A stretch of 64,000 nt of DNA from an uncultured Lachnospiraceae bacterium (GCA_964521785.1 CAZFTE010000005.1:1364-65363), one strand, 5' to 3'; counted from the first letter of the stretch, positions 18,507 through 33,253 are shown. Made by a program: numbers and translations. The notes: generated by a model not told the origin, from the sequence alone.

Positions 18507-18516
18507 AATGTTCACC

Positions 18517-19968
18517 TTACATCGTGGAAGAAGCTATCTTTCCTATAATATCCGTAACGGGAGAGGCGAAAAGTCCACCCAATACCGCAATAACGGCAAG
18601 AATTATTATCGGAACAAGCATAAGCACGGGTTCTTTCTTTGTTTCTGTTATCTTTACGGCTTCTTCGCCCGGGAAGAAAGCGCGTATGGAAATCGTAAGG
18701 AGGTAGCCTGCCGTGAGAAGCGCTGAAACGAGCAATATTACAGGCACGAGCCAAGAGAGCGTTCCGTTCAGCGAATCGAGCGATGCGGTGGCGAGGTACC
18801 ATTTGCTTACAAAGCCGCCTGTGGGAGGGATACCTATAAGCGAGAGCGAGAGCAACGTAAAGCAAACTAATGTTACAGGCATCTTTTTGCCGATACCGTT
18901 GATATCGCCGACATTTGTTTTACCGTAAAGGAATATGACAGCGCCACAGCAAAGGAACAAGCCTATCTTTACGACAGAGTGGAAGATGACTTGCAAAAGT
19001 GCGCCTTCCATTCCCGCTTCCGAGAAAAGGAAAAGACCGCAAAGCACATATGCTATCTGGCTGACTGTGGAATACGCAAGACGTTTTTTGAATATCTTTT
19101 CACGATAAGCCATCATGGAACCCATGAGTACAGTTATGAGCGCAAGGCAAATGAGCGCCGTCTGCACCCAAGTTCCCGAAAGTACCTTAGCACCGACGGT
19201 AAAGTACGCCGTGCGGATTATCGCAAGAACGCCCGCTTTTGCAATGATAGCGGAAAGAAGCGCACTCGCGGGAGCCGGAGCAACAGGGTGTGCCGAGGGG
19301 AGCCAGCCGTGGAGTGGAAACATGCCCGCTTTTGCGCCGAATCCGATGCACATCGCAAAAACTACGGCGAGTACAAGTCCGTTTGCGCTCTCCATATTTC
19401 CGCCCGCATTAAACGTGAGCGTAGGAGCATATTCGTTCAAAACAAATATGCCGAAGAGCGCCGTGAAAGCGCCCGCAACGGAATAATAGAGATATTTCTT
19501 TGCCGCTGTAATAGACTCTTTGGAGAGCGTGTGGATAACGAGCGGCATGGAAAACAGCGTTACAAATTCATAGAAAATATACATGGAAACAAGACCGGAA
19601 GAAAGAGCCGCACCTATCATCGCTCCTTCGGAAAGGAGCATGAATGAAAAGAAGCGTTCTTCGTTCTTTTCGTGCTTCATGTAAACGCAAGCGTATATCA
19701 TGACCAAGAGCCAACCGATGCAGACAACGGCGCAAAACAATTTTGCCACGCCGTCAGATGAAAAGCCTATCGTTATCGCTTCGGTTATCTTGAAAACGCC
19801 CGTAGTCATCGTTTCGGAGAAAACGATGACAGCGCAGAATATCGTTTCAACGACCTGCATCGCAGTGATGAGCGCGAGCTTTGCTTTTCTGCTGTTTATT
19901 TTTTTGAGCAACGGTATCATAATGCCGCATATGAGCGGAAATACGACCGCAAGAATAAGTATAAACAT
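18517..19968 (-). CDS. mrpD: MrpD/NuoM/N-like antiporter subunit (paralogue 2)
   Basis: 483-aa polytopic ORF with motif GAKAGMFPLHGWLPSAHPVAPAPASALLSA. Confidence 0.8.
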   Translation of the reverse strand: MFILILAVVFPLICGIMIPLLKKINSRKAKLALITAMQVVETIFCAVIVFSETMTTGVFKITEAITIGFSSDGVAKLFCAVVCIGWLLVMIYACVYMKHEKNEERFFSFMLLSEGAMIGAALSSGLVSMYIFYEFVTLFSMPLVIHTLSKESITAAKKYLYYSVAGAFTALFGIFVLNEYAPTLTFNAGGNMESANGLVLAVVFAMCIGFGAKAGMFPLHGWLPSAHPVAPAPASALLSAIIAKAGVLAIIRTAYFTVGAKVLSGTWVQTALICLALITVLMGSMMAYREKIFKKRLAYSTVSQIAYVLCGLFLFSEAGMEGALLQVIFHSVVKIGLFLCCGAVIFLYGKTNVGDINGIGKKMPVTLVCFTLLSLSLIGIPPTGGFVSKWYLATASLDSLNGTLSWLVPVILLVSALLTAGYLLTISIRAFFPGEEAVKITETKKEPVLMLVPIIILAVIAVLGGLFASPVTDIIGKIASSTM

Positions 19969-19981
19969 TTAAACCTCTCTT

Positions 19982-21490
19982 TCAACGTACATTGATGAAA
20001 AGTTCCAATCCCTTTTCAAGCAAGGAGATGATAGGCTGAGAATTTAAGCCTACCGCAACGTTTATTGCCACAAAAACGATCATCGCAAACGCAAAAGGAG
20101 CTATCTTTGCTATCTTCTTTTTTGTTTTTTTGCTTTCTTCGTCGAGCGGCTTGAATATTACCAATACCGTGCGGAGGAAGTACATTACGTTGAGCATCGT
20201 ACTGATGGCAAGCGCAATAAGAACAAAATATGTTTTCGCACCGTTGCCGAAAGAGGCGAGCGCGAAAAGAAGCTTCGGCACGAATCCCAAGAATATCGGA
20301 ATACCTACCATGGAAAGCGAGCCTGCCAAGAATGCGCCGCCCGCAAATACATTTTTATGCGCGGAAGATGTGAGTGCATTGAAGTTCTGCTTGCCGTCTG
20401 CCGTGTCGCAAAGACCTCCGGCAGAAACGAAGAGCATTGACTTTGTAAGAGAGTGCGATGCTATCTGGAAGAGAGACGCAACGACAGCCGCTCTCGTTCC
20501 CAAGCCGAGACCCATATAGATATAACCTATCTGAGCCGCAGATGAAAAAGCGACCATAAAGTTTATGCTCTTTGCGCGGATAGCGGAAACGGAACCGAAT
20601 ATCATGCCGCATATACCGAACACGAACAAAACGTTCTGCACTCCGCTGTCAAGGAACACATCTATTCCGATAACGCGGAAAAGTATCTTGAGGAGCAACA
20701 CTATATAGCCTTTGGATATAACACCCGAAAGTATAGCGGAAGCCGCGGGAGTTGCCGTGCCGTATGTATCGGGCATCCAAAAATGGAACGGGAAAAGACC
20801 GCTCTTTATGGCAAGACCCGAAACTATAAGTCCTATTGCGACCGTAAGCGGGAGAGTATACTGTCCGCTCTTCCAAACAAGACCTATCGCTTCGTAAAGG
20901 CTGGGGAAAAGAAGCTGACCCGTGATTGCATAGAGCAAGATTATACCGATGAGCAGGAAGCCCGAACCGATAAGGCTGAATATCATGTATCTCGTTGCCG
21001 CGATAAGCGAGCGACCGCTCGAACGAGCCATGAGCAACGAGCAGGACGCGATAGTGCATATCTCGACAAATACGTATGCCGTGAATATATCGTTCGTATA
21101 GCAGAGCGAAGCAAGCGCCGCATGGCAAAGGTTTACCATTACATAGAAGAACTTCTGCTTATCCTCGGCAACATCGGAAAATATCCTGTTTCTGCCGCCG
21201 ATGATGGAAAAGAGCATCACCACTTCAAAGAGCAACGCAAAGAAAGGCTCCAAAAGTCCTGCGGATATCTCGTTGCCTATGGGCGCATCGTAATGACCCA
21301 TGCGGTAAACAAAATATCCTACCTCGGAATTAAGGTTATATAATATAACGGAAGCCGACATAACAGCGCCCGCCGTAAGGAGAAAGTACGTTACGAAACG
21401 GGCTTTCTTTCCGTTAAATGCATAGGCAACGACAGAACAGAAAAGAGAAAGAACTATCGTTATAAAAGGGGAATTCTTAATAAAGTCCAT
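19982..21490 (-). CDS. mrpD: MrpD/NuoN-like antiporter subunit (paralogue 1, most divergent)
   Basis: 502-aa polytopic ORF with motif KSGLFPFHFWMPDTYGTATPAASAILSG. GGAGG upstream of the ATG. Confidence 0.75.
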   Translation of the reverse strand: MDFIKNSPFITIVLSLFCSVVAYAFNGKKARFVTYFLLTAGAVMSASVILYNLNSEVGYFVYRMGHYDAPIGNEISAGLLEPFFALLFEVVMLFSIIGGRNRIFSDVAEDKQKFFYVMVNLCHAALASLCYTNDIFTAYVFVEICTIASCSLLMARSSGRSLIAATRYMIFSLIGSGFLLIGIILLYAITGQLLFPSLYEAIGLVWKSGQYTLPLTVAIGLIVSGLAIKSGLFPFHFWMPDTYGTATPAASAILSGVISKGYIVLLLKILFRVIGIDVFLDSGVQNVLFVFGICGMIFGSVSAIRAKSINFMVAFSSAAQIGYIYMGLGLGTRAAVVASLFQIASHSLTKSMLFVSAGGLCDTADGKQNFNALTSSAHKNVFAGGAFLAGSLSMVGIPIFLGFVPKLLFALASFGNGAKTYFVLIALAISTMLNVMYFLRTVLVIFKPLDEESKKTKKKIAKIAPFAFAMIVFVAINVAVGLNSQPIISLLEKGLELFINVR

Positions 21491-21862
21491 TTATTCCTCC
21501 TCGCTACGCAGATGCATATACATTTCATCGAGATTGAGCGTGTGATATTTTTTGTAAAGACGGACGCAGAGCGCGAGCATGAGCGCCGTAACGCTTACGG
21601 ATACGACGATACCCGTAAGAACGAGACCCGAGGGAATGGGATTGATGTAATCCGCAACATTTACCTCGCCTTCGGACGGTACGATCGGCGTAAGAGCGTT
21701 TTTGATATAGCCCATAGACGCAAGGAAAAGATATACGCCCGTATCCATGATGTTAAGACCCATTATCTTTTTGATAAGATTGCGGGAGAAAACGAGCATG
21801 GTAAAGCCTATCGCGAAAAGTATCATCGCAACAAGCTCTTCATAGTTTTGAATGATATTCAA
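21491..21862 (-). CDS. mrpC: MrpC/NuoK-like subunit
   Basis: Small 3-TM protein. The ORF-track start 21913 is TTG with a 55-nt overlap. I prefer TTG 21862, which overlaps the upstream stop as TTGA and has a G-rich SD. The start is uncertain (ATG 21826 is also possible). Confidence 0.7.
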   Translation of the reverse strand: MNIIQNYEELVAMILFAIGFTMLVFSRNLIKKIMGLNIMDTGVYLFLASMGYIKNALTPIVPSEGEVNVADYINPIPSGLVLTGIVVSVSVTALMLALCVRLYKKYHTLNLDEMYMHLRSEEE

Positions 21863-22767
21863 TTCATGCGCCCCCTTTTGAAAAGCATATAGAAGCTGTA
21901 CATCGTGCAACAAACGACAAGACCTACGGCAATATTGAGCGGCATGATAAGTCCGCCCGAAAGTATATCGCCGGGTGTGCCTGCCGAGATAATGGAATGA
22001 ACGCCGTTAAATTCGTTTCCCGTAAAGAATGAATAGCTCTTTGCAAGGCAATAGAAAGAAAGTGAGCAGATGCTTATGATCTTTACTTTCTTTTCGCTGA
22101 GAACCTTGAGCGCCTGTTCTTCGCCGTATACCATCGCGTAAAGGATAAATCCCGCGCCGAGTATAGCTCCGCCGGAGAAGCCGCCGCCGGGAGAAAGATG
22201 ACCGTTTACAAGGATATATACGCCAAAAACAAGTATGAGCGGAATGAGTATCCTTGCCATCGTTTTAACGATGGGGTCGCGAGAATAGTTGAGTATATCG
22301 CCAGATTCGTCCTTCGGCTTTTTCTTTCTGTCCTCCATAAGAATGAGTACGGCGCAAGTTGCCGTGAAAAGAACGAAAGATTCGCCGAGCGTATCGAACG
22401 CACGGTAGTCAAGTATCATACCCGCAACGGTATTGACAGCGCCTGTTTCATCTCTGCCGTTTACGACATAATGACCCGAAACGTCGTTCATCGTCGGAGT
22501 GTCCGTGTCGGCAAATCCGGGAAGCACCGCTACCGTAGCGATAAGAACACTTATAAGTATTATACAGAATATCGTTGAAAATACTCTGTATTCAAAAGCG
22601 GAAATTTTTTTCTCTTTCTTTTCGAGAGAAGTGATTATCTTGTTTTCGTCTTTGTCCGCTTTTTCGGAGCAAACTTTTTTCGCCTTGCTACCCTCGGATG
22701 CTTTTTCTGTAAGATCTATTTCGCCGTCGAGCCAACGGAGAAATCTTGCGGAGAATTTATTCTTCAT
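21859..22767 (-). CDS. mrpB: MrpB/MnhB-domain subunit with a charged N-terminal extension
   Basis: MnhB signature NTVAGMILDYRAFDTLGE. Start moved to ATG 22767 (AAGGAGG 6 nt upstream). About 60 aa of Lys/Glu-rich sequence precede the first TM. Confidence 0.75.
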   Translation of the reverse strand: MKNKFSARFLRWLDGEIDLTEKASEGSKAKKVCSEKADKDENKIITSLEKKEKKISAFEYRVFSTIFCIILISVLIATVAVLPGFADTDTPTMNDVSGHYVVNGRDETGAVNTVAGMILDYRAFDTLGESFVLFTATCAVLILMEDRKKKPKDESGDILNYSRDPIVKTMARILIPLILVFGVYILVNGHLSPGGGFSGGAILGAGFILYAMVYGEEQALKVLSEKKVKIISICSLSFYCLAKSYSFFTGNEFNGVHSIISAGTPGDILSGGLIMPLNIAVGLVVCCTMYSFYMLFKRGRMN

Positions 22768-23071
22768 TTTCTTCCTCCTTTTCGTCTTCGTCGGTTTCTT
22801 CCTTGTCAACTTCGTTATCTTTATCTATAAGGTGAAGTTTGCGGAGCGTAAGGAAGAAAAGTACGCCTGTGATACCCGCGCCGACAGCCGCCTCTGTTAT
22901 AGCAAGGTCGGGCGAACGCAACAAAAGCCAAACAACGGACATAACGATGCTGTATGAGGTGAATATTATTATCATCGTCATCGGCTTTTTCGAAAATGCC
23001 GTCGCAACGGCACAAACAACAAGAGAAATGAGAAGTATCACGCGGAATACGGTAAGCAATGTTTCAAGCAT
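22757..23071 (-). CDS. MbhD/DUF4040-like small subunit (equivalent to the MrpA C-terminal region)
   Basis: 104-aa, 3-TM protein (DLAITEAAVGAGITG) ending in an acidic tail DKEETDEDEKEEENEE. GGAGGG SD. Confidence 0.65.
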   Translation of the reverse strand: MLETLLTVFRVILLISLVVCAVATAFSKKPMTMIIIFTSYSIVMSVVWLLLRSPDLAITEAAVGAGITGVLFFLTLRKLHLIDKDNEVDKEETDEDEKEEENEE

Positions 23072-23405
23072 TTTCCTCGCCCTCCTTCGGAAGCTCGCAG
23101 TGTTCAGCCAAATGCTCGTCCGTCATATATTCAGCTTTTGTGAGCATATGAGATGTCAAGGGGCAAGTACACCACTGAATAAATACTATAAGCGCAAATT
23201 TCGCGGACATTATGTCGAATCCCGCCGCGATAACGCCGCCTATAAAGAAAAGTATCAAAACGATAGTATCGTTCATAGCGGCGCAATGTATGCGGTTGAG
23301 CGCGAAGCGGAAACGATATGTACCGAGTATGGAGATATAGAGCAAAACGAGCGCAGATATAAAGAATATCGCGATGATGCCGAATCTTATCCAATCCAAA
23401 ATCAT
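23064..23405 (-). CDS. mrpG: MrpG/MnhG subunit
   Basis: 113 aa with MnhG-like YRFRFALNRIHCAAMNDT motif. ATGA overlap with mrpF. Confidence 0.75.
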   Translation of the reverse strand: MILDWIRFGIIAIFFISALVLLYISILGTYRFRFALNRIHCAAMNDTIVLILFFIGGVIAAGFDIMSAKFALIVFIQWCTCPLTSHMLTKAEYMTDEHLAEHCELPKEGEENA

Positions 23406-23698
23406 TTTTTATCCCCCTTATTTCCGCCGAAAAGGTTGATATACATCTTGCAAAGTATCATTACGGAAAGGAAGCTCAATACGACGTAGATTATGCCGAC
23501 GTCGGGGAGGTAATTTTCCTTGAACAACAACGCAAGTATGCATATAGCGCAAACGACGATGGTCGTTATCATGTTGATACCGATGAAACGGTCTACCGTT
23601 CTTTTACCCGTTATCGTGCGGATAAGGCAGAGCAGCGCCGCTATACCGAGAAATATAAGTACCACACTGTAAAGGATATTATAAGCTGTTTCCAACAT
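23402..23698 (-). CDS. mrpF: MrpF/MnhF subunit
   Basis: 98 aa, 3 TM, with MnhF-like GKRTVDRFIGINMITT motif. Confidence 0.75.
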   Translation of the reverse strand: MLETAYNILYSVVLIFLGIAALLCLIRTITGKRTVDRFIGINMITTIVVCAICILALLFKENYLPDVGIIYVVLSFLSVMILCKMYINLFGGNKGDKK

Positions 23699-23700
23699 TA

Positions 23701-24174
23701 TTATTTTTCCATCCTTTCCAATATCTTAACGAATCTGCTGTTCTCTATTCCGTCGATGAACGAACGGTCAAGGCAGTGTACCGTATACTCGTCTCCGTTC
23801 TGGTCTATCGTGATAGTACCGGGAGTAAGAGTGATGGAGTTAGCCAAAAGCATACGTGAAAAGCTCTTTTTCAAGGGTATGTTCACTTTTACGACAGCAG
23901 GCGTAACCTTTCTTTCCTTGTTGAGAATGACGATGACGACGGAGTAATTCGCCTTCAACACTTCCCACACAAGAACGGCGCAATAAGCTATCAACAAGAC
24001 AGCATTTCGCCAAAAATAAAGCTCGGCTTTCGGAGAAAAACCAAGAGCTTTGACAGCAAAAATATACACAAGTGCCGCAACGGCTATACCGGAAACAACT
24101 ATTTCCGCCATACCCGCATCAAGCGTAAATCTGCCGTTCAAAAGTATCCACAGCACAAATAATAATATTGCCAT
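23701..24174 (-). CDS. mrpE: MrpE/MnhE subunit
   Basis: MnhE-like sequence (WILLNGRFTLD...). Start moved to ATG 24174 (AAAGGAAG upstream); the ORF-track N-terminal 33 aa run into AT-rich promoter DNA. Confidence 0.7.
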   Translation of the reverse strand: MAILLFVLWILLNGRFTLDAGMAEIVVSGIAVAALVYIFAVKALGFSPKAELYFWRNAVLLIAYCAVLVWEVLKANYSVVIVILNKERKVTPAVVKVNIPLKKSFSRMLLANSITLTPGTITIDQNGDEYTVHCLDRSFIDGIENSRFVKILERMEK

Positions 24175-24294
24175 AAAAACTTCCTTTCGTTTTTGAATAA
24201 AAAGCAAAAATAACGGTATAAAAACAATGCGCTTATGCACGTTATTCACCGAAATTTTACATTTTATTATCATTTTTTTAAATTTGCATACATT

Positions 24295-24353: not shown

Positions 24354-24382
24354 TTGACACTGTTTTGGGAAAACTATATAAT
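24354..24382 (+). promoter_or_regulatory. consensus sigma-A promoter of rnfCDGEAB
   Basis: TTGACA (24354-24359), exactly 17-nt spacer, TATAAT (24377-24382). Confidence 0.7.
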
Positions 24383-24474: not shown

Positions 24475-25794
24475 ATGTCCTTTTTCCTTAAAGGCGTTCA
24501 CGTTCCGCACAGGAAGAATACCGCCGATTCGGCTCCCATAAAGATGACCGTTCCTAAGACGGTCATGATTCCAATGTCAATGCATATAGGAAAGCCGTCC
24601 GTCCCTGTCGTAAGTGTGGGAGATCACGTACATGTCGGCACTCTCATTGGCAAGCAGAACGGCGCAGTCTCTTCTCCCATCTATTCGAGCGTTTCGGGAA
24701 CGGTAAAAAAGATAGACAATATCCTGCTTGCAAACGGAATGTATTCAAAAGCCGTCGTCATAGTTTCCGACGGACTGCAAACAAAAGACCCGAGCATATC
24801 CCCTCCCATCATCGCTTGTAAAGAAGACCTTGTTTCGGCAATACAAAAAAGCGGCATCGTCGGGCTTGGCGGCGCGGGATTCCCGACATATATCAAATTC
24901 AATGTCAAAGATGTTTCGGCAATAGACGAGCTTATCATCAACGGAGCGGAGTGCGAACCGTATATCACGAGCGACACGCGCACTATGATAGACAAAGCGG
25001 ACGATATCGCTTTTGCCATATCCCTTATCAAAAAGCATCTCGGTATCAAAAAAGTCATCATCGGCATAGAGACCAATAAAAAAAGAGCCATCATCAAAAT
25101 GAAAGAGATCGCCGAAGATATAGACGGCGCAGAAGTCAAGGTGTTGCCGAGCGTTTATCCTCAGGGCGGCGAAAAAGTGCTTATCTATCACACGACAGGA
25201 AAAGTGGTTCCCGCGGGAAAATTACCGATAGATATCGGCTGCATCGTTTGCAACTGCACAACAATGGCGGCAATAGCAAAATTCGCAAAAACAGGTATGC
25301 CTTTGGTTGAAAAATGCGTAACCGTCGATGGAAGCGCCGTCAAAGAACCGCAAAACGTTATCGTTCCGATAGGCACGTCCATGGCTGATGTTTTTGAATT
25401 TTGCAAAGGATTCGTATCCGAACCGAAAAAGATACTCTACGGCGGACCGATGATGGGAATATCCGTCGCGAGCATAGATATGCCCGTACTCAAAAACACG
25501 AATGCCCTGCTCGCGTTCAATGAAAAAGACGCGCTCAGACCTAAAACGACACAGTGTATCCATTGCGGTATGTGCGTTTCGCACTGCCCTTTCGGGCTTT
25601 CTCCCATCGGAATAGCAAAAGCGTATAAAAGTGGAAACATCGAGGAGCTGAAGAAGCTTCGCGTCGATATCTGTATGGAATGTGGCTGTTGTTCCTATAT
25701 CTGCCCTGCAAAGCGCCCACTTGCGGAAACGAACAAGTTGGCAAAAAATATGCTTCGCGAATATGTCGCAAAGCAAAAGGAGATACAAAAATGA
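24475..25794 (+). CDS. rnfC: Rnf complex subunit C
   Basis: 439 aa with GLGGAGFPT and two ferredoxin-type clusters, CIHCGMCVSHCP and CMECGCCSYICP. Confidence 0.93.
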   Translation: MSFFLKGVHVPHRKNTADSAPIKMTVPKTVMIPMSMHIGKPSVPVVSVGDHVHVGTLIGKQNGAVSSPIYSSVSGTVKKIDNILLANGMYSKAVVIVSDGLQTKDPSISPPIIACKEDLVSAIQKSGIVGLGGAGFPTYIKFNVKDVSAIDELIINGAECEPYITSDTRTMIDKADDIAFAISLIKKHLGIKKVIIGIETNKKRAIIKMKEIAEDIDGAEVKVLPSVYPQGGEKVLIYHTTGKVVPAGKLPIDIGCIVCNCTTMAAIAKFAKTGMPLVEKCVTVDGSAVKEPQNVIVPIGTSMADVFEFCKGFVSEPKKILYGGPMMGISVASIDMPVLKNTNALLAFNEKDALRPKTTQCIHCGMCVSHCPFGLSPIGIAKAYKSGNIEELKKLRVDICMECGCCSYICPAKRPLAETNKLAKNMLREYVAKQKEIQK

Positions 25795-26714
25795 ACGAAC
25801 TTCATATTTCCGCTTCGCCTCATATATACTGTCCGCGCACGACGCAAAGCATAATGCTCGATGTTTTGATAGCGCTTTTACCCGCTTCTGTCGTCGGAAT
25901 ATTGATATTCGGCATAAGAGCGCTCGCTGTCATAGCCGTTTGCGTGTCATTTGCCGTGATATCGGAATTTATTTTCAATAAGATATGCAAAAAAGAAACT
26001 ACGGTGGGCGACCTCAGCGCCGCCGTTACGGGAACATTGCTCGCGCTGAATCTGCCTGCGGATATTCCGCTTTGGCAAGGCGCGATAGGTTCTGTTTTTG
26101 CAATAGTCATAGTCAAATGCCTTTTCGGCGGTATAGGTCAAAACTTTGCAAATCCCGCAATAACGGGGCGCGTATTCATGCTTATCACGTTCGGCTCGAT
26201 GACAACTTCCGCAATGCCGAAGATAGCGGATACCGCGTCAAGCGCCACACCGCTCGTTTCCCTTGCGAACGGCGAAAGCGTAAAGCTCTCAACGCTTCTG
26301 CTCGGAACGCACGGCGGCACCATCGGTGAGACCTGCATAATAGCGATATTGATAGGCGGCATATACCTCATCGTTCGCAAAGTGATATTGCCGCATACAC
26401 CGATAGCTTTTATAGCAACTGTGTTCGTTCTGTCTTTGGCTGTAACAAAAGACTTTTCATCGGCACTTGCGTATATCCTTTCGGGCGGTCTTTTCATCGG
26501 TGCGTTCTTTATGGCAACAGACTACGCCACGACACCGTTGACATCATGGGGCAAGGTGATATTCGGTATAGGCGCAGGTGTCATAACAGTGGTCATAAGA
26601 TTTTGGGGTTCATACCCGGAAGGCGTGTCGTTTGCGATACTCCTCATGAATATCTTGTCGCCTTATATCGATAAATTAACGGCGAAAAAGCCTTTCGGAG
26701 GTGCAAAAACATGA
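25791..26714 (+). CDS. rnfD: Rnf complex subunit D
   Basis: Polytopic NqrB/RnfD family (FFMATDYATTP). Start placed at ATG 25791, which makes an ATGA overlap with the rnfC stop. Confidence 0.92.
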   Translation: MNELHISASPHIYCPRTTQSIMLDVLIALLPASVVGILIFGIRALAVIAVCVSFAVISEFIFNKICKKETTVGDLSAAVTGTLLALNLPADIPLWQGAIGSVFAIVIVKCLFGGIGQNFANPAITGRVFMLITFGSMTTSAMPKIADTASSATPLVSLANGESVKLSTLLLGTHGGTIGETCIIAILIGGIYLIVRKVILPHTPIAFIATVFVLSLAVTKDFSSALAYILSGGLFIGAFFMATDYATTPLTSWGKVIFGIGAGVITVVIRFWGSYPEGVSFAILLMNILSPYIDKLTAKKPFGGAKT

Positions 26715-27874
26715 AAAGATCTTTTCAAAGCGTTATCGTGCTGACAGTAATATGCATCGTCATCTCCGCGCTTTTGGCGGCGGTAAACGCGATCACATTT
26801 CCGATAATAGAAAAAGCGGAAGCGCAAAAAGCGAACGAAGCTCTCTTGATAGTAATGCCGAACGGCAAAAGCTTTGAGGAGCTTTCGATGATAGAATACG
26901 ATCTTCCATCCTCCGTTACAAACGCATACCGCGCAGAAAACGGCGGATATGTTTTCAAAATGACCACTACGGGATATTCATCCGGGCTTGTCATAATGTG
27001 CGGCATCGATAATAACGGAAAAATAACAGGCGCCGTCTGTCTTGACAGCGGAGAAACATTGAGGCATGAAAAAACGTTCGGCGAAAGATTCATCGGGCTT
27101 GACAAAGACGGTGCCGACATCGTGGATACCATATCGGGTGCAACAAAGACGACTTCGGCTTATAAAAACGCGATAAAAGACGCATTCAATTCATTCATCA
27201 TCTTAAAAGGCGGCAGTGTTGATATTCGAACAGAAGACGAGATCCTTGCGGACGAGCTTTCTGTTGCTCTACCAAACGGCGAAAATTTCAAAAAAGAATT
27301 TATCATCGATGTTTTGGATGGTATCGACGCGATATATCTCGCCCAAAACGGCGAGGGATATGTTTTCTCGGTCAACGGAAGCTTTGTCGGAATAGATAAA
27401 AACGGAGATATCGTCGGCAAGGTCGATAGCCTCGCCGAACGCAAAGCGCTCGATGCTTACGCGATATACAAAAACAGTTCTCTTGATGAATTGGACATAT
27501 CCGTTTACGACGATATCTCGGACAAGATAACAAAAGCTTATAAAACAAGCGGCGGAAATTATGTATTTTCTCTCAGGGCTTCGGGATACGGAATAAACGG
27601 CGAATGGCAAGCCTCGGGCGAATATATCGTTATCGATATCTCGATAACGAGCGGCGGCAAAATAATCTCGTGCGTTACAAGAGAGCAACACGAAACAGAA
27701 GGCATCGGCTCCGTTTGCGCTTTGCCGTCATATTACGAAAGATATAACGGCAAAACATCGCAAACGCTCGATGAAGTAGACGCAATAAGCGGCGCGACAT
27801 TCACCCATAACGGTTACCGCGTTGCAGTCCTCAAGGCTTTGGAAGCCGTAGATATATTGGAGGGAGCAAAATAA
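26711..27874 (+). CDS. rnfG: Rnf complex subunit G, elongated, with two FMN-binding domains
   Basis: 387 aa with an N-terminal TM anchor. Two DxISGAT motifs (S142-T145 at 27134-27145; S360-T363 at 27788-27799). Three GG/EG/GN-YVF repeat starts. Confidence 0.85.
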   Translation: MKRSFQSVIVLTVICIVISALLAAVNAITFPIIEKAEAQKANEALLIVMPNGKSFEELSMIEYDLPSSVTNAYRAENGGYVFKMTTTGYSSGLVIMCGIDNNGKITGAVCLDSGETLRHEKTFGERFIGLDKDGADIVDTISGATKTTSAYKNAIKDAFNSFIILKGGSVDIRTEDEILADELSVALPNGENFKKEFIIDVLDGIDAIYLAQNGEGYVFSVNGSFVGIDKNGDIVGKVDSLAERKALDAYAIYKNSSLDELDISVYDDISDKITKAYKTSGGNYVFSLRASGYGINGEWQASGEYIVIDISITSGGKIISCVTREQHETEGIGSVCALPSYYERYNGKTSQTLDEVDAISGATFTHNGYRVAVLKALEAVDILEGAK

Positions 27875-27876
27875 AA

Positions 27877-28566
27877 ATGAAAAATACAAATAAACTTTCC
27901 TTTCTTCTCAAAGGCTTGCTCCTTGAAAATCCCGTTTTCGTGCTTGTGTTGGGTACTTGCCCGACGCTTGCCACCACGACGAGCGTGATAGGAGCCGTAA
28001 GCATGGGGCTTGCCGCGACCGCGGTGTTGACATGCTCGAACACGGTCATATCATTGCTCCGCAAAGTGATACCCGATAAAGTGCGGATACCTTGCTATAT
28101 AGTTATCATCGCGGGGTTTGTAACTCTCGTTCAGATGCTCATGCACGCATATCTGCCCGAACTTTACGAGCTTCTCGGAATATACCTTGCGCTCATAACC
28201 GTAAATTGTATAATCCTCGGCAGAGCGGAGATGTTCGCAAGCAAAAACGATGTCGGCGCATCTGCCCTTGACGGTCTGGGAATGGGGCTTGGATTTACGC
28301 TCGCCCTCTTTCTCATGTCAACGATAAGAGAAATATTCGGCAACGGCTCTTTCGCAGGCATAGCCATACCGTTTTTGCAAAATTATAAGATAGAGTTTTT
28401 GGTAAGGTCCCCCGGCGGATTTCTCGTGTTCGGCATCTTGATAGCGATAGTGAACGCCGCCGCAAGAGGCAAAGCCCTAAAGAAAAAGGATTTCGGTTGC
28501 GAAGCTTGCCCGAGCGCGGGTATTTGCCATTCCAACTCTTGCACAGCGGAAAAGGAGGAAAAGTGA
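27877..28566 (+). CDS. rnfE: Rnf complex subunit E
   Basis: 229 aa, NqrD/RnfE family (NPVFVLVLGTCPTLA). Confidence 0.92.
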   Translation: MKNTNKLSFLLKGLLLENPVFVLVLGTCPTLATTTSVIGAVSMGLAATAVLTCSNTVISLLRKVIPDKVRIPCYIVIIAGFVTLVQMLMHAYLPELYELLGIYLALITVNCIILGRAEMFASKNDVGASALDGLGMGLGFTLALFLMSTIREIFGNGSFAGIAIPFLQNYKIEFLVRSPGGFLVFGILIAIVNAAARGKALKKKDFGCEACPSAGICHSNSCTAEKEEK

Positions 28567-28567
28567 T

Positions 28568-29167
28568 ATGGATACTTTCAAAAATTTGATGATCATACTC
28601 ATGTCCTCCGTGCTTGTCAACAACTATGTATTGAGCAGATTCTTGGGCATATGTCCCTTTTTGGGCGTTTCGAAAAAGCTCGATCAAGCAAGCGGTATGG
28701 GACTGTCCGTAATATTCGTAATGCTTTTGGCAACAGCGGCTACTTGGCCCATACAAAGATTCATTCTCGAACCGTTGAAACTTGAATTTTTGCAAACGAT
28801 AGTATTCATACTCGTTATAGCAGCCCTCGTTCAGTTTATAGAGATAGCTTTGAAAAAATATATACCCTCGTTGCACAAAAATCTCGGCGTATATCTTCCG
28901 CTTATAACGACAAACTGTGCTGTTCTCGGTGTTACCATAAACAACATCACGGACGGATACAGCTTTATCGAATCCATGGTAAGCTCGCTCGGTTGCGGTC
29001 TTGGATTTTTGCTTGCCATGGTGCTGTTCTCGGGCGTTCGCCAAAGGATAGAGGATTGCGATGCCCCCGAATGTTTCAAAGGGCTTCCGATAACGCTCAT
29101 TGCGGCATCGATAGTTTCGCTCGCTTTCTTCGGCTTTACGGGAATAGTCGATAACATTTTCGCATGA
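28568..29167 (+). CDS. rnfA: Rnf complex subunit A
   Basis: 199 aa, NqrE/RnfA family (LGICPFLGVS). Confidence 0.92.
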   Translation: MDTFKNLMIILMSSVLVNNYVLSRFLGICPFLGVSKKLDQASGMGLSVIFVMLLATAATWPIQRFILEPLKLEFLQTIVFILVIAALVQFIEIALKKYIPSLHKNLGVYLPLITTNCAVLGVTINNITDGYSFIESMVSSLGCGLGFLLAMVLFSGVRQRIEDCDAPECFKGLPITLIAASIVSLAFFGFTGIVDNIFA

Positions 29168-29185
29168 TTTCGGAGGTATTGATAT

Positions 29186-29989
29186 ATGTTTAATGCTATT
29201 ATTACAGCCGTGGCGGTCGTTGGCGCCATCGGTCTTATCTGCGGAATAATACTCGCGCTCGCTTCTCATTTCATGAGCGTGAAAACAGACGAGAGAATAT
29301 CCGATATCCGCGAATGTTTGCCGGGCGCAAACTGCGGCGCTTGCGGTTACACGGGTTGCGACGGATATGCAAAAGCGATAATAGAGGATAGCGCAAAAAC
29401 GAATCTCTGCGTTCCTGGCGCTTCCGATGTCGCGAAAAAAATATCGGATATGCTGGGCGTGGAAGCGGAAGCTGTGGAGAGATGCGTTGCGTTCGTTCAC
29501 TGCAACGGAAACTTCGACGCGGCAAAAAGCAAAGCCATCTACGACGGCATTAAAAGCTGCAAAGCGGAATGTCTTATATACGGCGGCTCCAAAGCTTGTG
29601 TTTTTGGTTGTGTCGGTTGCGGAGATTGCGCCTCCGTTTGCCCAAAAGGCGCCATATGCGTCGATGACGGAGTTGCTCGGATAAATCGTTCGCTCTGCAT
29701 CGGGTGCGGCATCTGCGTAAGATCTTGCCCAAAGGGGCTGATAACGCTCATTCCCGCAAAAGCGAAGGTTGCCGTGATGTGCAACAGCAAAGAAAAAGGG
29801 GCTTCGGTTCGCAAAGCTTGCACAAACGGCTGTATCGGTTGCAAAAAATGTGAAACGATATGTCCCCAAGACGCTATTCATGTTGAAAACAATCTTGCCG
29901 TGATAGATCATGACAAATGTGTAGGTTGCGGTCTTTGCGCCAAAAATTGTCCTATTCAATGTATAGTAAAGATACCGAAGAACTCTTGA
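29186..29989 (+). CDS. rnfB: Rnf complex subunit B (polyferredoxin)
   Basis: 267 aa with an N-terminal TM, CGACGYTGC, and several CxxCxxCxxxCP 4Fe-4S motifs. Confidence 0.92.
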   Translation: MFNAIITAVAVVGAIGLICGIILALASHFMSVKTDERISDIRECLPGANCGACGYTGCDGYAKAIIEDSAKTNLCVPGASDVAKKISDMLGVEAEAVERCVAFVHCNGNFDAAKSKAIYDGIKSCKAECLIYGGSKACVFGCVGCGDCASVCPKGAICVDDGVARINRSLCIGCGICVRSCPKGLITLIPAKAKVAVMCNSKEKGASVRKACTNGCIGCKKCETICPQDAIHVENNLAVIDHDKCVGCGLCAKNCPIQCIVKIPKNS

Positions 29990-29997
29990 AAAATTTT

Positions 29998-30029
29998 AAA
30001 ATAAGGCAGGATACATTCTGCCTTATTTT
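29998..30029 (+). terminator. hairpin/terminator between rnfB and the NusG-II gene
   Basis: 12-bp stem AAAATAAGGCAG/CTGCCTTATTTT, 8-nt loop. The U-run is part of the 3' arm. Confidence 0.55.
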
Positions 30030-30043
30030 AAACGGAGGGTACG

Positions 30044-30421
30044 ATGGAAAAGAAAAAAATCAAAAACGACATTATCCTCATCTCAGCGATATTGATATGC
30101 TTGTTTTCGGCGCTTGCCGTATTTTTGACGATACGCAGTGTCGGCGGCTATGCTGTCGTTATAAAAAACGGAGTTGAAACAGCACGCTATCCGCTCTTTA
30201 AAGATGCGGAGATAACGCTGACTTATCCCGAAAGCGATGCATACAATACCTTGAAGATAGAAAACGGCAAAGCGAGCATCATCTCCGCTTCCTGCGCGGA
30301 CGGAATATGCGTCGAGCATCGTGCGATAAGATACGACGGCGAAACGATAGTTTGTTTGCCGAACAAGCTCGTCATAAAGATAATATCCGAAAGCGAGGGC
30401 GCTGTGGACGCGATATCGTAA
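30044..30421 (+). CDS. NusG domain II-containing membrane-anchored protein
   Basis: 125 aa with an N-terminal TM and a beta-rich domain carrying ASCADGICVEH and IVCLPNKLVI, typical of this family. GGAGGG SD. Confidence 0.7.
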   Translation: MEKKKIKNDIILISAILICLFSALAVFLTIRSVGGYAVVIKNGVETARYPLFKDAEITLTYPESDAYNTLKIENGKASIISASCADGICVEHRAIRYDGETIVCLPNKLVIKIISESEGAVDAIS

Positions 30422-30422
30422 A

Positions 30423-30914
30423 ATGAAAACAAAAAAGCTTACTTTTTTGGCGCTTTGCGCTTGCATCGCGCTCATACTGTCATATATCGAATCTTTACTG
30501 CCACCGATATTTTCCGCCATACCCGGCATAAAAGTCGGATTGCCGAATATTATCATCATATTTGCCCTATATCGTTACGGTCTGTGCGCCGCGGGCGCTG
30601 TTTCGATGATACGAATATGCTTATCCGCGCTTCTTTTCGGCAATGTTTGGTCGCTGGTTTACAGCATATGCGGTGGCGCGTTGAGCCTATTTTTGATGTT
30701 TTTATTAAAGAAAACAGAACGATTTTCCTATGTCGGTATCAGCGTAGTCGGCGGCATCTCGCATAATTTGGGGCAAATCTTGCTTGCCATGGTAGCCCTT
30801 AAAACGCGCGAGATAGGCTTCTATATGATAGTTCTTTCGTTCAGCGGCATAATAGCGGGTATATTAGTGGGGCTTGCCTCGGCGCTCATGCTCAAATATG
30901 TAAAAAAGGTATAG
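30423..30914 (+). CDS. Gx transporter family protein (Hpre_diP_synt_I-like)
   Basis: 163 aa, 5 TM, with signature IESLLPPIFSAIPGIKVGLPNIIII. Start lies 1 nt after the upstream stop. Confidence 0.7.
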   Translation: MKTKKLTFLALCACIALILSYIESLLPPIFSAIPGIKVGLPNIIIIFALYRYGLCAAGAVSMIRICLSALLFGNVWSLVYSICGGALSLFLMFLLKKTERFSYVGISVVGGISHNLGQILLAMVALKTREIGFYMIVLSFSGIIAGILVGLASALMLKYVKKV

Positions 30915-30945
30915 AAAGCAAACGCTCTCTATACCTTTTTGTTTT
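30908..30945. terminator. bidirectional terminator between the Gx-transporter gene and apbE
   Basis: Stem GGTATAGA/TCTATACC followed by TTTTTGTTTT, with an A-run on the other side. Confidence 0.55.
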
Positions 30946-31966
30946 ATCTGTTCCAATCCGAGGAATATATCACGCTTTTGTCGTTTTTGACCCACAAAGC
31001 CTTTGTGCCGTCCAAAGAATCAATAAGCGCCATTCCGTCTTCTAGGCTCATACTGAAAAGAGCCGTGGAAAGCGCATCCGCAAGACCGGAATCCTCGCAA
31101 AGCACGGAAACGGAGAGAAATGTGTCATCCGGCATGAGCGTATCCTTGCTTATGATGTGATGATATCTTTTGCCGTCAACATAATAGAATCTTTGATACG
31201 AACCACTCGTAATGAGCGCGCCGCTCGTCATGTAAACATATTCGATATATTCTTCTCCATCATACGGAGCCTCCACTCCGACGGTCCAAGGAGTGCCGTC
31301 GCCGCGCGGACCTATCACGCAAACATTGCCGCCGACATTTATAATGTAACCGCTTTTGCCGATACCTTCAAGATATTCCACAATGCGCGCCGCGGCATAT
31401 CCTTTTGCTATCGCGCCAACATCAACGCTCATTTCTCCATCGGCAAGATAAGCCGTTCCGCGTTCGCGGTCTATGACGATATCGTTTATATCCGTATGTT
31501 TGGAAGCATTAGAAAGCACCTCCATCGATGGTATAGATGCCTTTTCGGGAGAGATAGAGCCTATATCTCTATGATCGTGCCATATCGAAAGCACGCTTCC
31601 CATCGCTATGTTTGTATAACCGGCGGTAATATCGTATATCTCTTTGCCGTATTCCAAAAGAGACAATATTTTTTCATCAAGCTCGATAGGTTCACGCGAA
31701 TTATTGAGCGTATAAAGATTATTCAAACCATCGTAAGGCGTATATATGTCATACAGTTTATGATATTCCTCCAAGAGAGCAAATATATCCTCGCAAACAG
31801 CGTCGAACTCCGCTTTTTCGCTCTCATATCCTATTATGACAGTAGATGTATCAAAATAGTCGAAGTTATACGCGCTGTATCTGTTCTTGCGCTTTTGGCA
31901 AGAACAGCACACGCACGATATAAGCAACGCCAAAGCAACGCATAATGTTTTTTTGAATATCTTCAT
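30944..31966 (-). CDS. apbE: FAD:protein FMN transferase (ApbE family lipoprotein)
   Basis: 340 aa with a signal peptide and Cys-rich lipobox region (ALLISCVCCSC). ApbE motifs VDVGAIAKGYAA and TSGSYQRFYYVDGKRYHHIISKDT. Confidence 0.9.
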   Translation of the reverse strand: MKIFKKTLCVALALLISCVCCSCQKRKNRYSAYNFDYFDTSTVIIGYESEKAEFDAVCEDIFALLEEYHKLYDIYTPYDGLNNLYTLNNSREPIELDEKILSLLEYGKEIYDITAGYTNIAMGSVLSIWHDHRDIGSISPEKASIPSMEVLSNASKHTDINDIVIDRERGTAYLADGEMSVDVGAIAKGYAAARIVEYLEGIGKSGYIINVGGNVCVIGPRGDGTPWTVGVEAPYDGEEYIEYVYMTSGALITSGSYQRFYYVDGKRYHHIISKDTLMPDDTFLSVSVLCEDSGLADALSTALFSMSLEDGMALIDSLDGTKALWVKNDKSVIYSSDWNR

Positions 31967-32029
31967 CTTTATCCCTCGCCATGTAAAATATGAGGAGAGA
32001 TATTCTCCTCATATTTTCGAATATTATAT

Positions 32030-33001
32030 CTATTTTTGTTCGATAGCTTTCATGATAGCCTTTGCCATGCCCGATATCTTAACGGTGCAACCTGCGTTCA
32101 ATATTTCTTCGCCGCCGTAACCGTCGGAAGAAACGAGCTTTTTTATCTCTTCGGCGGTCTTGCCTACGCAGAACTCCGCAAGCTTATCCGCTTGTTCGAA
32201 CCACTCAAGCTTAGAACCCGCTTTCTCCATGCCGTAATCATAGCCTTTTTCTCGTTTTGTCGATACCTTTTCGTCCGCGCTTACGGTGGAAGCTCCGTTT
32301 CTGTCGAATGTGAAATTCATCTCGGCACTGTCGAATATCGTAAAAACACATCTTCCGTCTTTATCAGTAACCGATGCGGCAACGTCTGCCGTTATTTTTC
32401 CGTAGCCGTCCGCTTCCTCGCTCGCACTTCTTCCGCTTTGATAAGCGTCCGTGCCGATAGTCAGAGCGTATTCTCCGTCGATATCGCATTTTTTTGCGTT
32501 ATCACAAGCTTTTTCTATCGCTTTTACCATGTCTGTCAAAACCATCGTACAGCCATGGCTTACAAGCTCCGCATTTCCGTAGCCGTCAGGCGTCAAAGTC
32601 GCCGTTATCTCGCCGTGAGTTTTTCCCTTGCAAAAGTTTTCGAATATTTTTATCTGTTCTGCCTGCGAGATATTGGAACCGACCGTTTTATCGTCGCTCT
32701 CTCTTTTTGTCGCTACGCTTTTGGTTCCGACAAGTTCCCCGCCCGCAGTATATTCTACGGTATCTTCCGCAACATCTATCTTTATATCGATGATATTTCC
32801 GTCTTTGCCGATAATAACAGCGGCAGCCGTCATATCGAAAATACCTTTTCCGTTCGTCTCCTCGATTGCGTCGAGAGCCGAATAAGACGGCACCACCCCA
32901 AGCCCAAGCTTAGTCTCCTCTTCGGCAGAGCCGCAAGCGGCAAGCGCAAACAAGCAAAAAGCCAAAGATAACGCAAATATCATCTTGAAAATTCTTTTCA
33001 T
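32030..33001 (-). CDS. lipoprotein with two FMN_bind-like repeats (PplA-like architecture, non-canonical G-C-T motifs)
   Basis: 323 aa with lipobox LAAC (C23). Two about 140-aa repeats, each ending with STKRE..GxxYG..(W)..Q..F..GKT...DGYG...L..GCT...MxKAI. G150-C151-T152 at 32554-32546 and G304-C305-T306 at 32092-32084. Confidence 0.6.
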   Translation of the reverse strand: MKRIFKMIFALSLAFCLFALAACGSAEEETKLGLGVVPSYSALDAIEETNGKGIFDMTAAAVIIGKDGNIIDIKIDVAEDTVEYTAGGELVGTKSVATKRESDDKTVGSNISQAEQIKIFENFCKGKTHGEITATLTPDGYGNAELVSHGCTMVLTDMVKAIEKACDNAKKCDIDGEYALTIGTDAYQSGRSASEEADGYGKITADVAASVTDKDGRCVFTIFDSAEMNFTFDRNGASTVSADEKVSTKREKGYDYGMEKAGSKLEWFEQADKLAEFCVGKTAEEIKKLVSSDGYGGEEILNAGCTVKISGMAKAIMKAIEQK

Positions 33002-33253
33002 ATATCAACTCCATAAAATATATCCAAAAATTTTCATACAAGAATAATACATTATTTTTCAACGAAAGTCAATATTTTTCCCGTATGAACGTTTACGCAC
33101 AGCGTAAAGTGCTTTTCAAGATATATTCTGCCCTTTCCGATATATTTTTATAAAATATTTTTTATATTTATGATGACAAATCGCTTTTAAAGTTGTATAA
33201 TAGGAAAGTCGTCAAAAAGACACACAATTTTTACAGGAAATACGGTGATACAT

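Follow-up and report, generated by a model that had tools for sequence, protein, structure and literature searches.

Among the closest described counterparts of the locus analysed here is the flavin-based EET locus of Listeria monocytogenes, comprising Ndh2, DmkA/B, EetA, EetB, FmnA, FmnB and PplA (Light 2018, Rivera-Lugo 2023). In that system EetB, the substrate-binding subunit of a FAD exporter, was found experimentally to be needed for both FAD export and PplA flavinylation; in the same work PF07009 is labelled EetA (Data Set S1) and PF07456 is the eetB family, eetB is reported to lie with Rnf in 572 Clostridia genomes, and clusters joining eetB, apbE and Rnf are common in Clostridia (Rivera-Lugo 2023, PMC9973259). 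RNF clusters with a multi-flavinylated RnfG have been proposed as a second route to extracytosolic acceptors (Méheust 2021, eLife; PMC8238504), and in Methanosarcina acetivorans a branch from Rnf through the multihaem cytochrome MmcA has been studied experimentally (reviewed in PMC12174285). A further point of comparison is FMN-bind2, a class of domains approximately 160 aa long, present in even copy numbers and paired through their beta-sheets (Huang 2024, mSystems; PMC11334425).

The window, i.e. the whole 64-kb stretch of DNA from an uncultured Lachnospiraceae bacterium that was analysed, carries a ten-gene module whose features are collected in Table 1. Pfam and NCBIfam scans bore out the gene content at these coordinates, an Rnf operon with a double-domain RnfG, a NusG_II/PF07456 pair, ApbE and a lipoprotein. 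On the basis of these profile matches the locus encodes a complete Rnf complex (RnfCDGEAB), with RnfC, D, E, A and B each above their NCBIfam cut-offs and RnfG at 54.6 bits against TIGR01947, under the cut-off of 102. The rnfD open reading frame opens at 25680, the likelier start being the ATG that overlaps the rnfC stop.

Table 1. Features of the module and its flanks, numbered from the first nucleotide of the window.
Feature	Position	Strand	Description
Promoter-like site, 5' of rnfC	24354..24382	+	TTGACA-17-TATAAT; 12/12, consensus match only
rnfC	24475..25794	+	439 aa; NADH/FMN-binding and 4Fe-4S subunit; TIGR01945 444.8 bits (cut-off 246); Pfam RnfC_N, Complex1_51K, SLBB, Fer4
rnfD	25791..26714	+	307 aa; PF03116 361.6 bits; TIGR01946 287.4 bits
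RnfD predicted covalent-FMN site	26247-26249 (Thr codon)	+	D-T-A-S-S-A-T
rnfG	26711..27874	+	387 aa; two FMN_bind stretches (Pfam)
RnfG residues 1-168	27143-27145 (Thr145 codon)	+	TM helix and canonical FMN_bind domain
RnfG residues 169-387	27215-27871; 27797-27799 (Thr363 codon)	+	Extra RnfG-like FMN_bind domain
rnfE	27877..28566	+	229 aa; TIGR01948 237.3 bits (cut-off 213.4)
rnfA	28568..29167	+	199 aa; TIGR01943 263.2 bits (cut-off 229.3)
rnfB	29186..29989	+	267 aa; polyferredoxin subunit; TIGR01944 125 bits (cut-off 68.7); Pfam FeS and several Fer4 families
eetA homologue	30044..30421	+	125 aa; N-terminal TM helix and NusG_II domain; PF07009 E=1.2e-25
eetB homologue	30423..30914	+	163 aa; ECF-S-like putative FAD exporter subunit; PF07456 E=3.3e-35
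Hairpin	30909..30945	.	GGTATAGA...TCTATACC, A-run and T-run flanks; putative bidirectional terminator
apbE	30944..31966	-	340 aa; lipoprotein-type FAD:protein FMN transferase; PF02424 217.4 bits
'GCT' lipoprotein	32030..33001	-	323 aa; signal peptide, lipobox L-A-A-C23
Lipoprotein repeat 1	32474-32914; 32546-32548 (Thr codon)	-	H-G-C-T152
Lipoprotein repeat 2	32033-32473; 32084-32086 (Thr codon)	-	A-G-C-T306
Promoter-like site, 5' of lipoprotein gene	33044..33072	-	TTGACT-17-TATTAT; consensus match only

The N-terminal part of RnfG aligns with the solved RnfG structures 7zc6_G and 9eri_G, and its two domains align with each other at E=3.6e-23 (hhalign). Their predicted covalent-FMN sites read D-T-I-S-G-A-T and D-A-I-S-G-A-T, nearly all relatives in an alignment of 64 retain both G-A-T cores, and the RnfG of these organisms tolerates Ala or Gly at position -3. 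With more than one predicted FMN_bind domain on RnfG, the locus falls among the RNF clusters for which the second path was proposed (PMC8238504).

Downstream of rnfB, the pair that had been described as a putative flavin-delivery pair consists of homologues of EetA (PF07009) and EetB (PF07456), the latter with a weak Pfam ECF_trnsprt match and five hydrophobic segments in a hydropathy scan; the statement that no EetA/EetB homologue is visible was therefore wrong, and EetA/B are not electron carriers, EetB having a published role as a FAD exporter subunit (PMC9973259). Nor are the known EET components lacking: EetA, EetB and ApbE, the equivalent of FmnB, are all encoded, and the lipoprotein is an analogue of PplA. 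The hairpin at 30909..30945, read from the sequence as a putative terminator common to two convergent transcription units, was absent from the list returned by a terminator scan.

The locus thus resembles the Listeria one in its EetA and EetB homologues with an adjacent ApbE/FmnB flavin transferase, in a lipoprotein at the surface for which two flavinylation sites are predicted, and in an overall logic by which exported FAD would be covalently attached to an extracytoplasmic carrier. It differs in that the window contains no Ndh2, DmkA/B or FmnA and the candidate membrane donor is Rnf, drawing on ferredoxin, rather than an NADH dehydrogenase with demethylmenaquinone. The predicted absence of Ndh2, DmkA and DmkB within 64 kb was confirmed by a scan of the open reading frames of the window, which returned no Pyr_redox_2, UbiA or polyprenyl synthase, and no Ndh2, UbiA-type or polyprenyl synthase genes were noted among the called genes of twelve inspected loci. 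The description of the route as an undescribed wiring was overstated, since a second RNF route had already been proposed (PMC8238504) and the Methanosarcina Rnf-MmcA system is a precedent (PMC12174285). The idea of a quinone-free electron outlet already exists in outline in the literature. The Methanosarcina system likewise adds to Rnf an extracytoplasmic redox protein directed toward non-NAD+ acceptors, extracellular ones included, but MmcA is an unrelated archaeal haem protein, whereas the partner here is predicted to carry flavin.

The two repeats of the lipoprotein, each approximately 147 aa, align with each other at E=1.6e-42 (hhalign). The AlphaFold model (pLDDT 91.7, pTM 0.86) predicts for each repeat three long strands followed by helices, with G-C-T in the loop before the last helix. 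The claim of two FMN_bind-like domains holds for the two repeats and not for a Pfam FMN_bind match: the protein matched no Pfam or NCBIfam model, an FMN_bind match was missing even at E<=10, and neither the separate repeats nor any of 39 homologues matched FMN_bind. In a profile search of the PDB the lipoprotein returned 2kzx_A at E=2.4e-7, plus one chance-level match, and 2kzx itself scores 25.3 bits against Pfam FMN_bind (cut-off 22); 3O6U, the reported PplA/Cad template, was not returned. Foldseek searches of the PDB with the full-length model and with a single repeat gave no match at E<=0.001 and missed even 2kzx, so that fold-level proof of the FMN_bind relationship failed. Comparison of the repeats with both RnfG FMN_bind domains (hhalign) was not significant, at a probability <10%, with a local line-up of the motif and following helix only. 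The wording 'FMN_bind-like' is kept because of the 2kzx_A match, the S-G-A-T found in relatives at the same position (D-L-I-S-G-A-T, the canonical form, in relative P0243) and the fit to the FMN-bind2 description.

The lipoprotein is accordingly predicted to be a two-domain, FMN-bind2-like flavin carrier. Its family shares with FMN-bind2, as a match to the published description only, repeats of approximately 150-160 aa in even numbers (2, 4 or 6) and long beta-strands predicted to pair two repeats into a two-site unit, and the FMN-bind2 exemplar NTW96865.1 is likewise without an InterPro entry. The A-G-C-T site and the association with Rnf, in contrast, are unmentioned in that account (PMC11334425). 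PplA has two Pfam FMN_bind domains with S-G-A-T sites, and PplA/Cad have been modelled on the FMN-bind1 structure 3O6U (PMC7074142), whereas the protein described here has no Pfam FMN_bind domain and an A-G-C-T site, making it an analogue of PplA and not a member of its family; orthology to PplA was rejected on the absence of an FMN_bind match, the failure to return 3O6U and the G-C-T reading of the sites. Repeat 1 of the window protein is without the Y-G-M and E-W-x-E-Q segment of the family, and flavin may therefore not be held there.

At 50% identity the family forms at least 1861 clusters, and a scan of 185,579 species genomes confirmed relatives at no fewer than 502 places. Two repeats are present in 248 of 265 proteins and four or six in 13. 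Across 549 ungapped repeats from these 265 members, the site residue is Thr in 534 and Ser in 13 (547/549 together), while the preceding residue is Cys in 483, Val in 47 and Ala in 12; retention of Thr/Ser while its neighbour varies is what one would expect were the hydroxyl group carried by the functional residue. Relative to the published ApbE target motif, D-x-x-[S/T]-G-A-[S/T], the lipoprotein sites keep Gly and Thr and deviate at three positions: -6 is not Asp, -3 is Ala or His, and -1 is Cys. In a model substrate approximately 50% flavinylation was reached despite an Ala-to-Val change at -1, and an Asp-to-Ala change retained activity (PMC12052999). The protein is placed outside the cytoplasm by its lipobox and its gene adjoins apbE, the context of an ApbE substrate, and T152 and T306 are candidate flavinylation sites. 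The natural ApbE target motif may be looser than the published one. We found no description in the literature of A-G-C-T in place of the canonical S-G-A-T in a Pfam-invisible lipoprotein family. Being missed by the Pfam FMN_bind model, the family would also be missed by Pfam-based surveys of flavinylated proteins, including the RNF survey, in which flavin domains were defined by PF04205 (PMC8238504).

The module is real and strongly conserved: it recurs across hundreds of Clostridia genomes, and its clustering is not due to chance. Among 84 loci found through the lipoprotein, which are those of its closest relatives and do not describe the whole family, apbE adjoins the lipoprotein gene in nearly all, rnfCDGEAB-eetAB lies next to them on every contig that is long enough, and the RnfG alongside is the double-domain form of approximately 390 aa. 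The converse comparison was made with the neighbours of four RnfG homologues on long contigs, all four of which (4/4) have a 333-336-aa lipoprotein with two A-G-C-T motifs, followed by apbE in the three whose contig reaches past the lipoprotein gene. The suggested co-conservation of the two proteins consequently holds in both directions. A metagenome scan with RnfG domain 2 as its seed yielded for the most part short contigs and generic FMN_bind matches and was of no use for the converse test. As the flanking genes differ among loci, the conserved unit is the module itself; across 86 loci no terminal reductase or acceptor-related gene recurs around it, the sole recurring extra being a small DUF1622 membrane protein (37/86 loci) that the window does not contain. 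At two loci, L085 from Feifania hominis and L086, the Rnf G subunit has a single FMN_bind domain and the repeat protein bears a canonical FMN_bind domain of its own. The extra domain is thus located on either RnfG or the repeat protein, a domain swap that ties the two together. Neither this swap nor the tight pairing of the lipoprotein with double-domain RnfG was found described in the literature.

A possible explanation for this arrangement, to which we give about an even chance, is that an Rnf ferredoxin:NAD+ pump is extended on its outer face by a short chain of covalent flavins, forming a quinone-free branch to the lipoprotein. FAD would be exported by EetA/EetB together with ECF T and A subunits whose genes lie elsewhere, and the ApbE lipoprotein would move FMN onto threonines of RnfD (one), RnfG (two) and the lipoprotein (two, in G-C-T). 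Electrons from reduced ferredoxin would pass through RnfB and the RnfA/E iron-sulfur cluster to the canonical flavin of RnfG, which would lie outside the membrane. The normal return from this flavin would run through RnfD and RnfC to NAD+, and the branch through the second flavin domain of RnfG to the lipoprotein with its two flavins. The latter could then reduce an extracytoplasmic acceptor not encoded by the cluster, e.g. free flavins, Fe(III) or a secreted reductase; the same wiring could run in reverse. Flavin attachment at the G-C-T threonines, the RnfG-lipoprotein contact, the direction of electron flow and the acceptor are all points that we infer.

The lipoprotein might instead serve maturation only, as a flavin store or as a handler of FAD or FMN between export by EetAB and transfer by ApbE, with no electron outlet. 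EetB and ApbE are maturation functions commonly co-localised with Rnf in Clostridia, the lipoprotein gene adjoins apbE in nearly every locus, and the cluster conserves no acceptor gene, all of which would suit such a role. It is nevertheless unlikely, given that the most conserved feature of the lipoprotein is Thr/Ser at the flavinylation-site position, which fits a substrate better than a carrier, that most Rnf operons mature without such a protein (the operons at L103, L105 and L108 have none), that an FMN_bind domain moving between RnfG and the repeat protein is hard to reconcile with a chaperone, and that relatives with four to six repeats resemble relay chains.

Another reading makes the lipoprotein a PplA-like terminal carrier that would receive its electrons from an Ndh2/demethylmenaquinone branch whose genes lie outside the window, and adjacency to rnf would then reflect only a common reliance on ApbE and EetAB. 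In general architecture it does match PplA, likewise a two-flavin-site lipoprotein encoded beside apbE and eetAB, and the Ndh2/Dmk genes may sit beyond the 64 kb of the window. Against this quite improbable reading are the strict two-way co-occurrence of the lipoprotein with double-domain RnfG, the domain swap, the lack of Ndh2, UbiA-type and polyprenyl synthase genes in the window and the twelve loci, and the report that PplA/Cad occur beside apbE only in genomes without rnf (PMC7074142). The remaining alternative is a protein that has lost flavin chemistry, its cysteines serving thiol or metal chemistry, or that binds a non-redox ligand. Cysteine is indeed invariant at both sites in the close clade, the sites depart from the canonical ApbE motif, none of 39 members matches Pfam FMN_bind, and there is no fold match, but the near-universal tie to apbE and FMN_bind domains in the sampled loci and the exchange of Cys for Val or Ala in the wider family, with Thr/Ser kept, make this very improbable. 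The same exchange indicates that Cys is not the essential residue, and cysteine chemistry in the form of a thiol-flavin adduct, disulfide or metal site is unlikely.

A purely fermentative metabolism is assumed for many Clostridia of the gut and rumen, and we know of no clear route to external acceptors for those without a Listeria-type quinone route. It is possible, though doubtful, that in quinone-poor gut Clostridia Rnf itself provides the membrane part of a respiratory outlet that uses flavins only and carries ferredoxin electrons to the cell surface. RnfD would contribute one covalent flavin to such an outlet, and RnfG and the lipoprotein two each, five in all, with the Pfam-invisible lipoprotein family as its missing outer carrier. 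If electrons taking the branch still power the translocation of ions, the cell would couple the reduction of an external acceptor directly to Na+ or H+ pumping without quinone or cytochrome. Feifania hominis, a cultured carrier of a relative of the repeat protein, could serve as an experimental organism. A conserved Rnf-linked flavin relay would provide these organisms with a concrete route to external acceptors, with ferredoxin as the donor, that may conserve energy through Rnf.

Ten genes make up the cluster, arranged as two convergent transcription units. On the forward strand, rnfC, rnfD, rnfG, rnfE, rnfA and rnfB precede two genes whose products are a NusG_II protein (PF07009) and a membrane protein of family PF07456; Pfam and NCBIfam models match all of these strongly. 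On the reverse strand the lipoprotein gene is followed by that for an ApbE flavin transferase. Domain matches and reading of the sequence thus confirmed the originally predicted gene content (Rnf, the PF07009/PF07456 pair, ApbE and the lipoprotein). The accompanying claim that EetA and EetB are absent was wrong, since the supposed 'flavin-delivery pair' is EetA/EetB by the assignments of Rivera-Lugo et al. 2023, in which eetB is PF07456 and PF07009 is labelled EetA in the data set (PMC9973259). EetB was shown there to be the FAD-binding ECF-S subunit required for FAD export and PplA flavinylation, and eetB was found beside Rnf in 572 Clostridia genomes (PMC9973259). For rnfD, the likely start is the ATG overlapping the rnfC stop codon, which agrees better with the family model and with the RnfD lengths of relatives (305-311 aa) than does that of the longest open reading frame. 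The hairpin at the junction of the units, read from the sequence and absent from the terminator-scan output, is a putative bidirectional terminator, and the palindrome ahead of eetA could be an internal attenuator or RNA-processing site of the operon.

Coordinates of features in the window and at related loci in other genomes or contigs (L-numbers)
Feature	Location	Strand	Remark
Mrp/Mnh-type cation/proton antiporter cluster	window 15067-24273	-	complete; divergent from rnf
Gene cluster	window 24475-33001		
Promoter-like TTGACA-17-TATAAT	upstream of rnfC		perfect consensus match
Overlap of longest rnfD ORF with rnfC	window 25680-25794	+	115 bases
Preferred rnfD start	window 25791	+	ATG
Palindrome between rnfB and eetA	window 29995-30032		38 nt, near-perfect: TTTAAAATAAGGCAG...CTGCCTTATTTTAAA
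eetA	window 30044-30421	+	PF07009
eetB	window 30423-30914	+	PF07456
Hairpin	window 30909-30945		between A-run and T-run
apbE	window 30944-31966	-	
Lipoprotein gene	window 32030-33001	-	323 aa
Lipoprotein repeat 1	window 32474-32914	-	site H-G-C-T, not A-G-C-T
DUF1622 (PF07784) genes	L003:12124-12501; L124:14474-14857; L125:14476-14835		examples; 34 other loci
FeoA/FeoB ferrous-iron transporter	L086:13870-16206		directly downstream of rnf/repeat protein/apbE/eetAB cluster
607-aa RnfG	L036, RnfG match at about 4634		

Among the remaining large open reading frames of the 64-kb window, Pfam detected no Ndh2-type dehydrogenase, UbiA-type prenyltransferase or polyprenyl synthase, in agreement with the earlier claim that Ndh2 and Dmk homologues are missing from the window, and no cytochrome or fumarate-reductase-like enzyme; these frames encode housekeeping functions and the Mrp antiporter cluster. 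The latter comprises MnhE, MrpF, MnhG, an MbhD-like protein, MnhB/MbhE, MnhC and four consecutive Proton_antipo_M paralogues, with no hydrogenase or Nuo soluble subunits seen there, and its adjacency to rnf is not conserved in relatives L001-L004.

Behind its lipobox (L-A-A-C23), the lipoprotein is built of two internal repeats, alignable to one another at E=1.6e-42 (hhalign) and ending in H-G-C-T152 and A-G-C-T306, respectively. Neither the protein, nor either repeat taken singly, nor any of 39 homologues was matched by a Pfam or NCBIfam model. The profile of these homologues matched a single PDB chain, 2kzx_A (E=2.4e-7), placing A-G-C-T-I opposite S-G-A-T-I-K, and the 2kzx sequence scores 25.3 bits against Pfam FMN_bind (cut-off 22). 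AlphaFold modelled the whole lipoprotein with a pLDDT of 91.7 and pTM of 0.86 (93.2 pLDDT for one repeat alone), each repeat forming three long strands, then helices, with G-C-T in the loop preceding the last helix. As Foldseek against the PDB returned no match for the full-length model or a single repeat, and hhalign gave no significant alignment of the repeats with either RnfG domain, the relation to canonical FMN_bind is remote. Likened by description only, the model fits the published FMN-bind2 subtype, whose exemplar (NTW96865.1) likewise has no InterPro entry and in which ~160-aa domains occur in even copy numbers, joined in twos through an extended sheet so that each pair has two flavin sites (PMC11334425). 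Orthology to PplA was rejected, as the published model of PplA/Cad used the FMN-bind1 structure 3O6U as template and its gene was reported next to apbE only in the absence of rnf (PMC7074142); the lipoprotein is instead an analogue.

The family is large, with at least 1861 clusters at 50% identity reaching E<=0.001, and a scan of 185,579 species, with one genome per species, gave at least 502 places encoding a relative among the 600 matches listed. All 80 loci retained from the scan were in Clostridia metagenome-assembled genomes, many from the ruminant gut. Among the repeats aligned without gaps (549, in 265 proteins), Thr occupies the site in 534 and Ser in 13; the preceding residue varies (Cys 483, Val 47, Ala 12), and distant members carry D-L-x-S-S-V-T, D-L-A-A-S-C-T or, once, the canonical D-L-I-S-G-A-T. 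On these alignments, the hydroxyl residue is the constant feature of the site, as expected for phosphoester flavinylation, and the cysteine is a clade habit and no requirement; in the published ApbE motif, replacement of Ala by Val or of Asp by Ala is tolerated (PMC12052999). Repeat 1 of the window lipoprotein has lost the conserved Y-G-M and E-W-x-E-Q segment of the family, as has repeat 1 of the relatives P0001 and P0002 (72-97% identical), and may be degenerate with an inactive site. Relatives with four to six repeats, namely P0121 (991 aa), P0122 (624 aa), P0185 (714 aa) and P0202 (839 aa), look like longer relay proteins; a Big_2 Ig-like domain is present in one of the multi-repeat relatives, and another consists of five shortened repeats, each ending in G-C-T.

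At 387 aa, the window RnfG is approximately twice as long as usual. The N-terminal helix together with the first FMN_bind domain can be aligned to the solved RnfG subunits 7zc6_G and 9eri_G, and a second RnfG-like domain spans residues 169-387 (E=3.6e-23 against the first, hhalign). D-x-x-S-G-A-T is kept in both domains (Thr145, Thr363) and D-T-A-S-S-A-T in RnfD. RnfG at lipoprotein-seeded loci is mostly about 385-400 aa, shorter lengths probably being artefacts of crude start-codon choice. Nearly all aligned RnfG (n=64) contain both G-A-T cores, and position -3 is occupied by Ser, Ala or Gly in lipoprotein-bearing organisms. The long RnfG of L036 reads S-G-A-T at residue 145 and S-G-A-S at residue 452; it may have three domains or be a fusion protein.

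Co-conservation of double-domain RnfG and the lipoprotein held in both directions. In all but a few of 84 lipoprotein-seeded loci apbE adjoins the lipoprotein gene, the exceptions being ~10 kb away (one locus) or one to two kb further downstream (two), and rnfCDGEAB with the PF07009/PF07456 pair adjoins wherever the contig extends, except at L030. Flanking genes vary from locus to locus. Conversely, in 4/4 loci, RnfG homologues on long contigs were accompanied by a lipoprotein of 333-336 aa that has the A-G-C-T site twice, with apbE next in the three whose contig runs past it. The accessory set was wholly missing within 10 kb of three Rnf operons with single-domain RnfG on human-gut contigs. 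Most telling is a domain swap: the extra canonical flavin domain lies on either RnfG or the repeat protein. The relative in Feifania hominis (WP_249298697.1, annotated 'FMN-binding protein') is membrane-anchored and has a canonical Pfam FMN_bind domain fused ahead of two repeats; its gene neighbours apbE and a divergently oriented rnf-eetAB operon, in which RnfG has a single domain (182 aa). L086 is organised alike, with RnfD and RnfG fused. This alternation argues that RnfG and the repeat protein work together.

Two further neighbours were observed. DUF1622 is a ~125-aa membrane protein whose gene follows apbE or neighbours rnfC in 37 of 86 related loci; not found in the window by tblastn, it may belong to the module as an optional eleventh component. 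The iron transporter at L086, a single case, could point to a connection with iron reduction or uptake.

The notion of a route from Rnf to the lipoprotein is partly supported by the conserved linkage and the domain swap, and was largely anticipated in print by the second extracytosolic route proposed from multi-flavinylated RnfG (Méheust 2021, PMC8238504). An experimentally studied analogue of such a branch is the Rnf of Methanosarcina, whose additional multihaem cytochrome (cited as MmcA) is the expected electron route to methanophenazine or extracellular acceptors (PMC12174285). Not found described in the literature was the near-constant pairing, across the sampled loci, of double-domain RnfG with a lipoprotein of A-G-C-T repeats that Pfam does not recognise. 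The lipoprotein could alternatively serve in maturation only, be supplied by a Listeria-type quinone branch encoded elsewhere, or have a non-flavin function; all three are less consistent with the site conservation and the domain swap than is a relay from RnfG.

The module itself is real and strongly conserved. The reading that joins maturation by EetAB and ApbE to an RnfG-lipoprotein relay is considered to have about an even chance of being correct, and within it we infer that the G-C-T threonines are flavinylated and that RnfG contacts the lipoprotein, as well as which way electrons flow and to what acceptor. FAD would be exported by EetAB, and ApbE would place FMN on RnfD, both RnfG domains and the lipoprotein. 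The second RnfG domain and the lipoprotein would then form a short flavin chain branching off the Rnf loop on the outer side of the membrane, leading toward an acceptor not encoded by the cluster.
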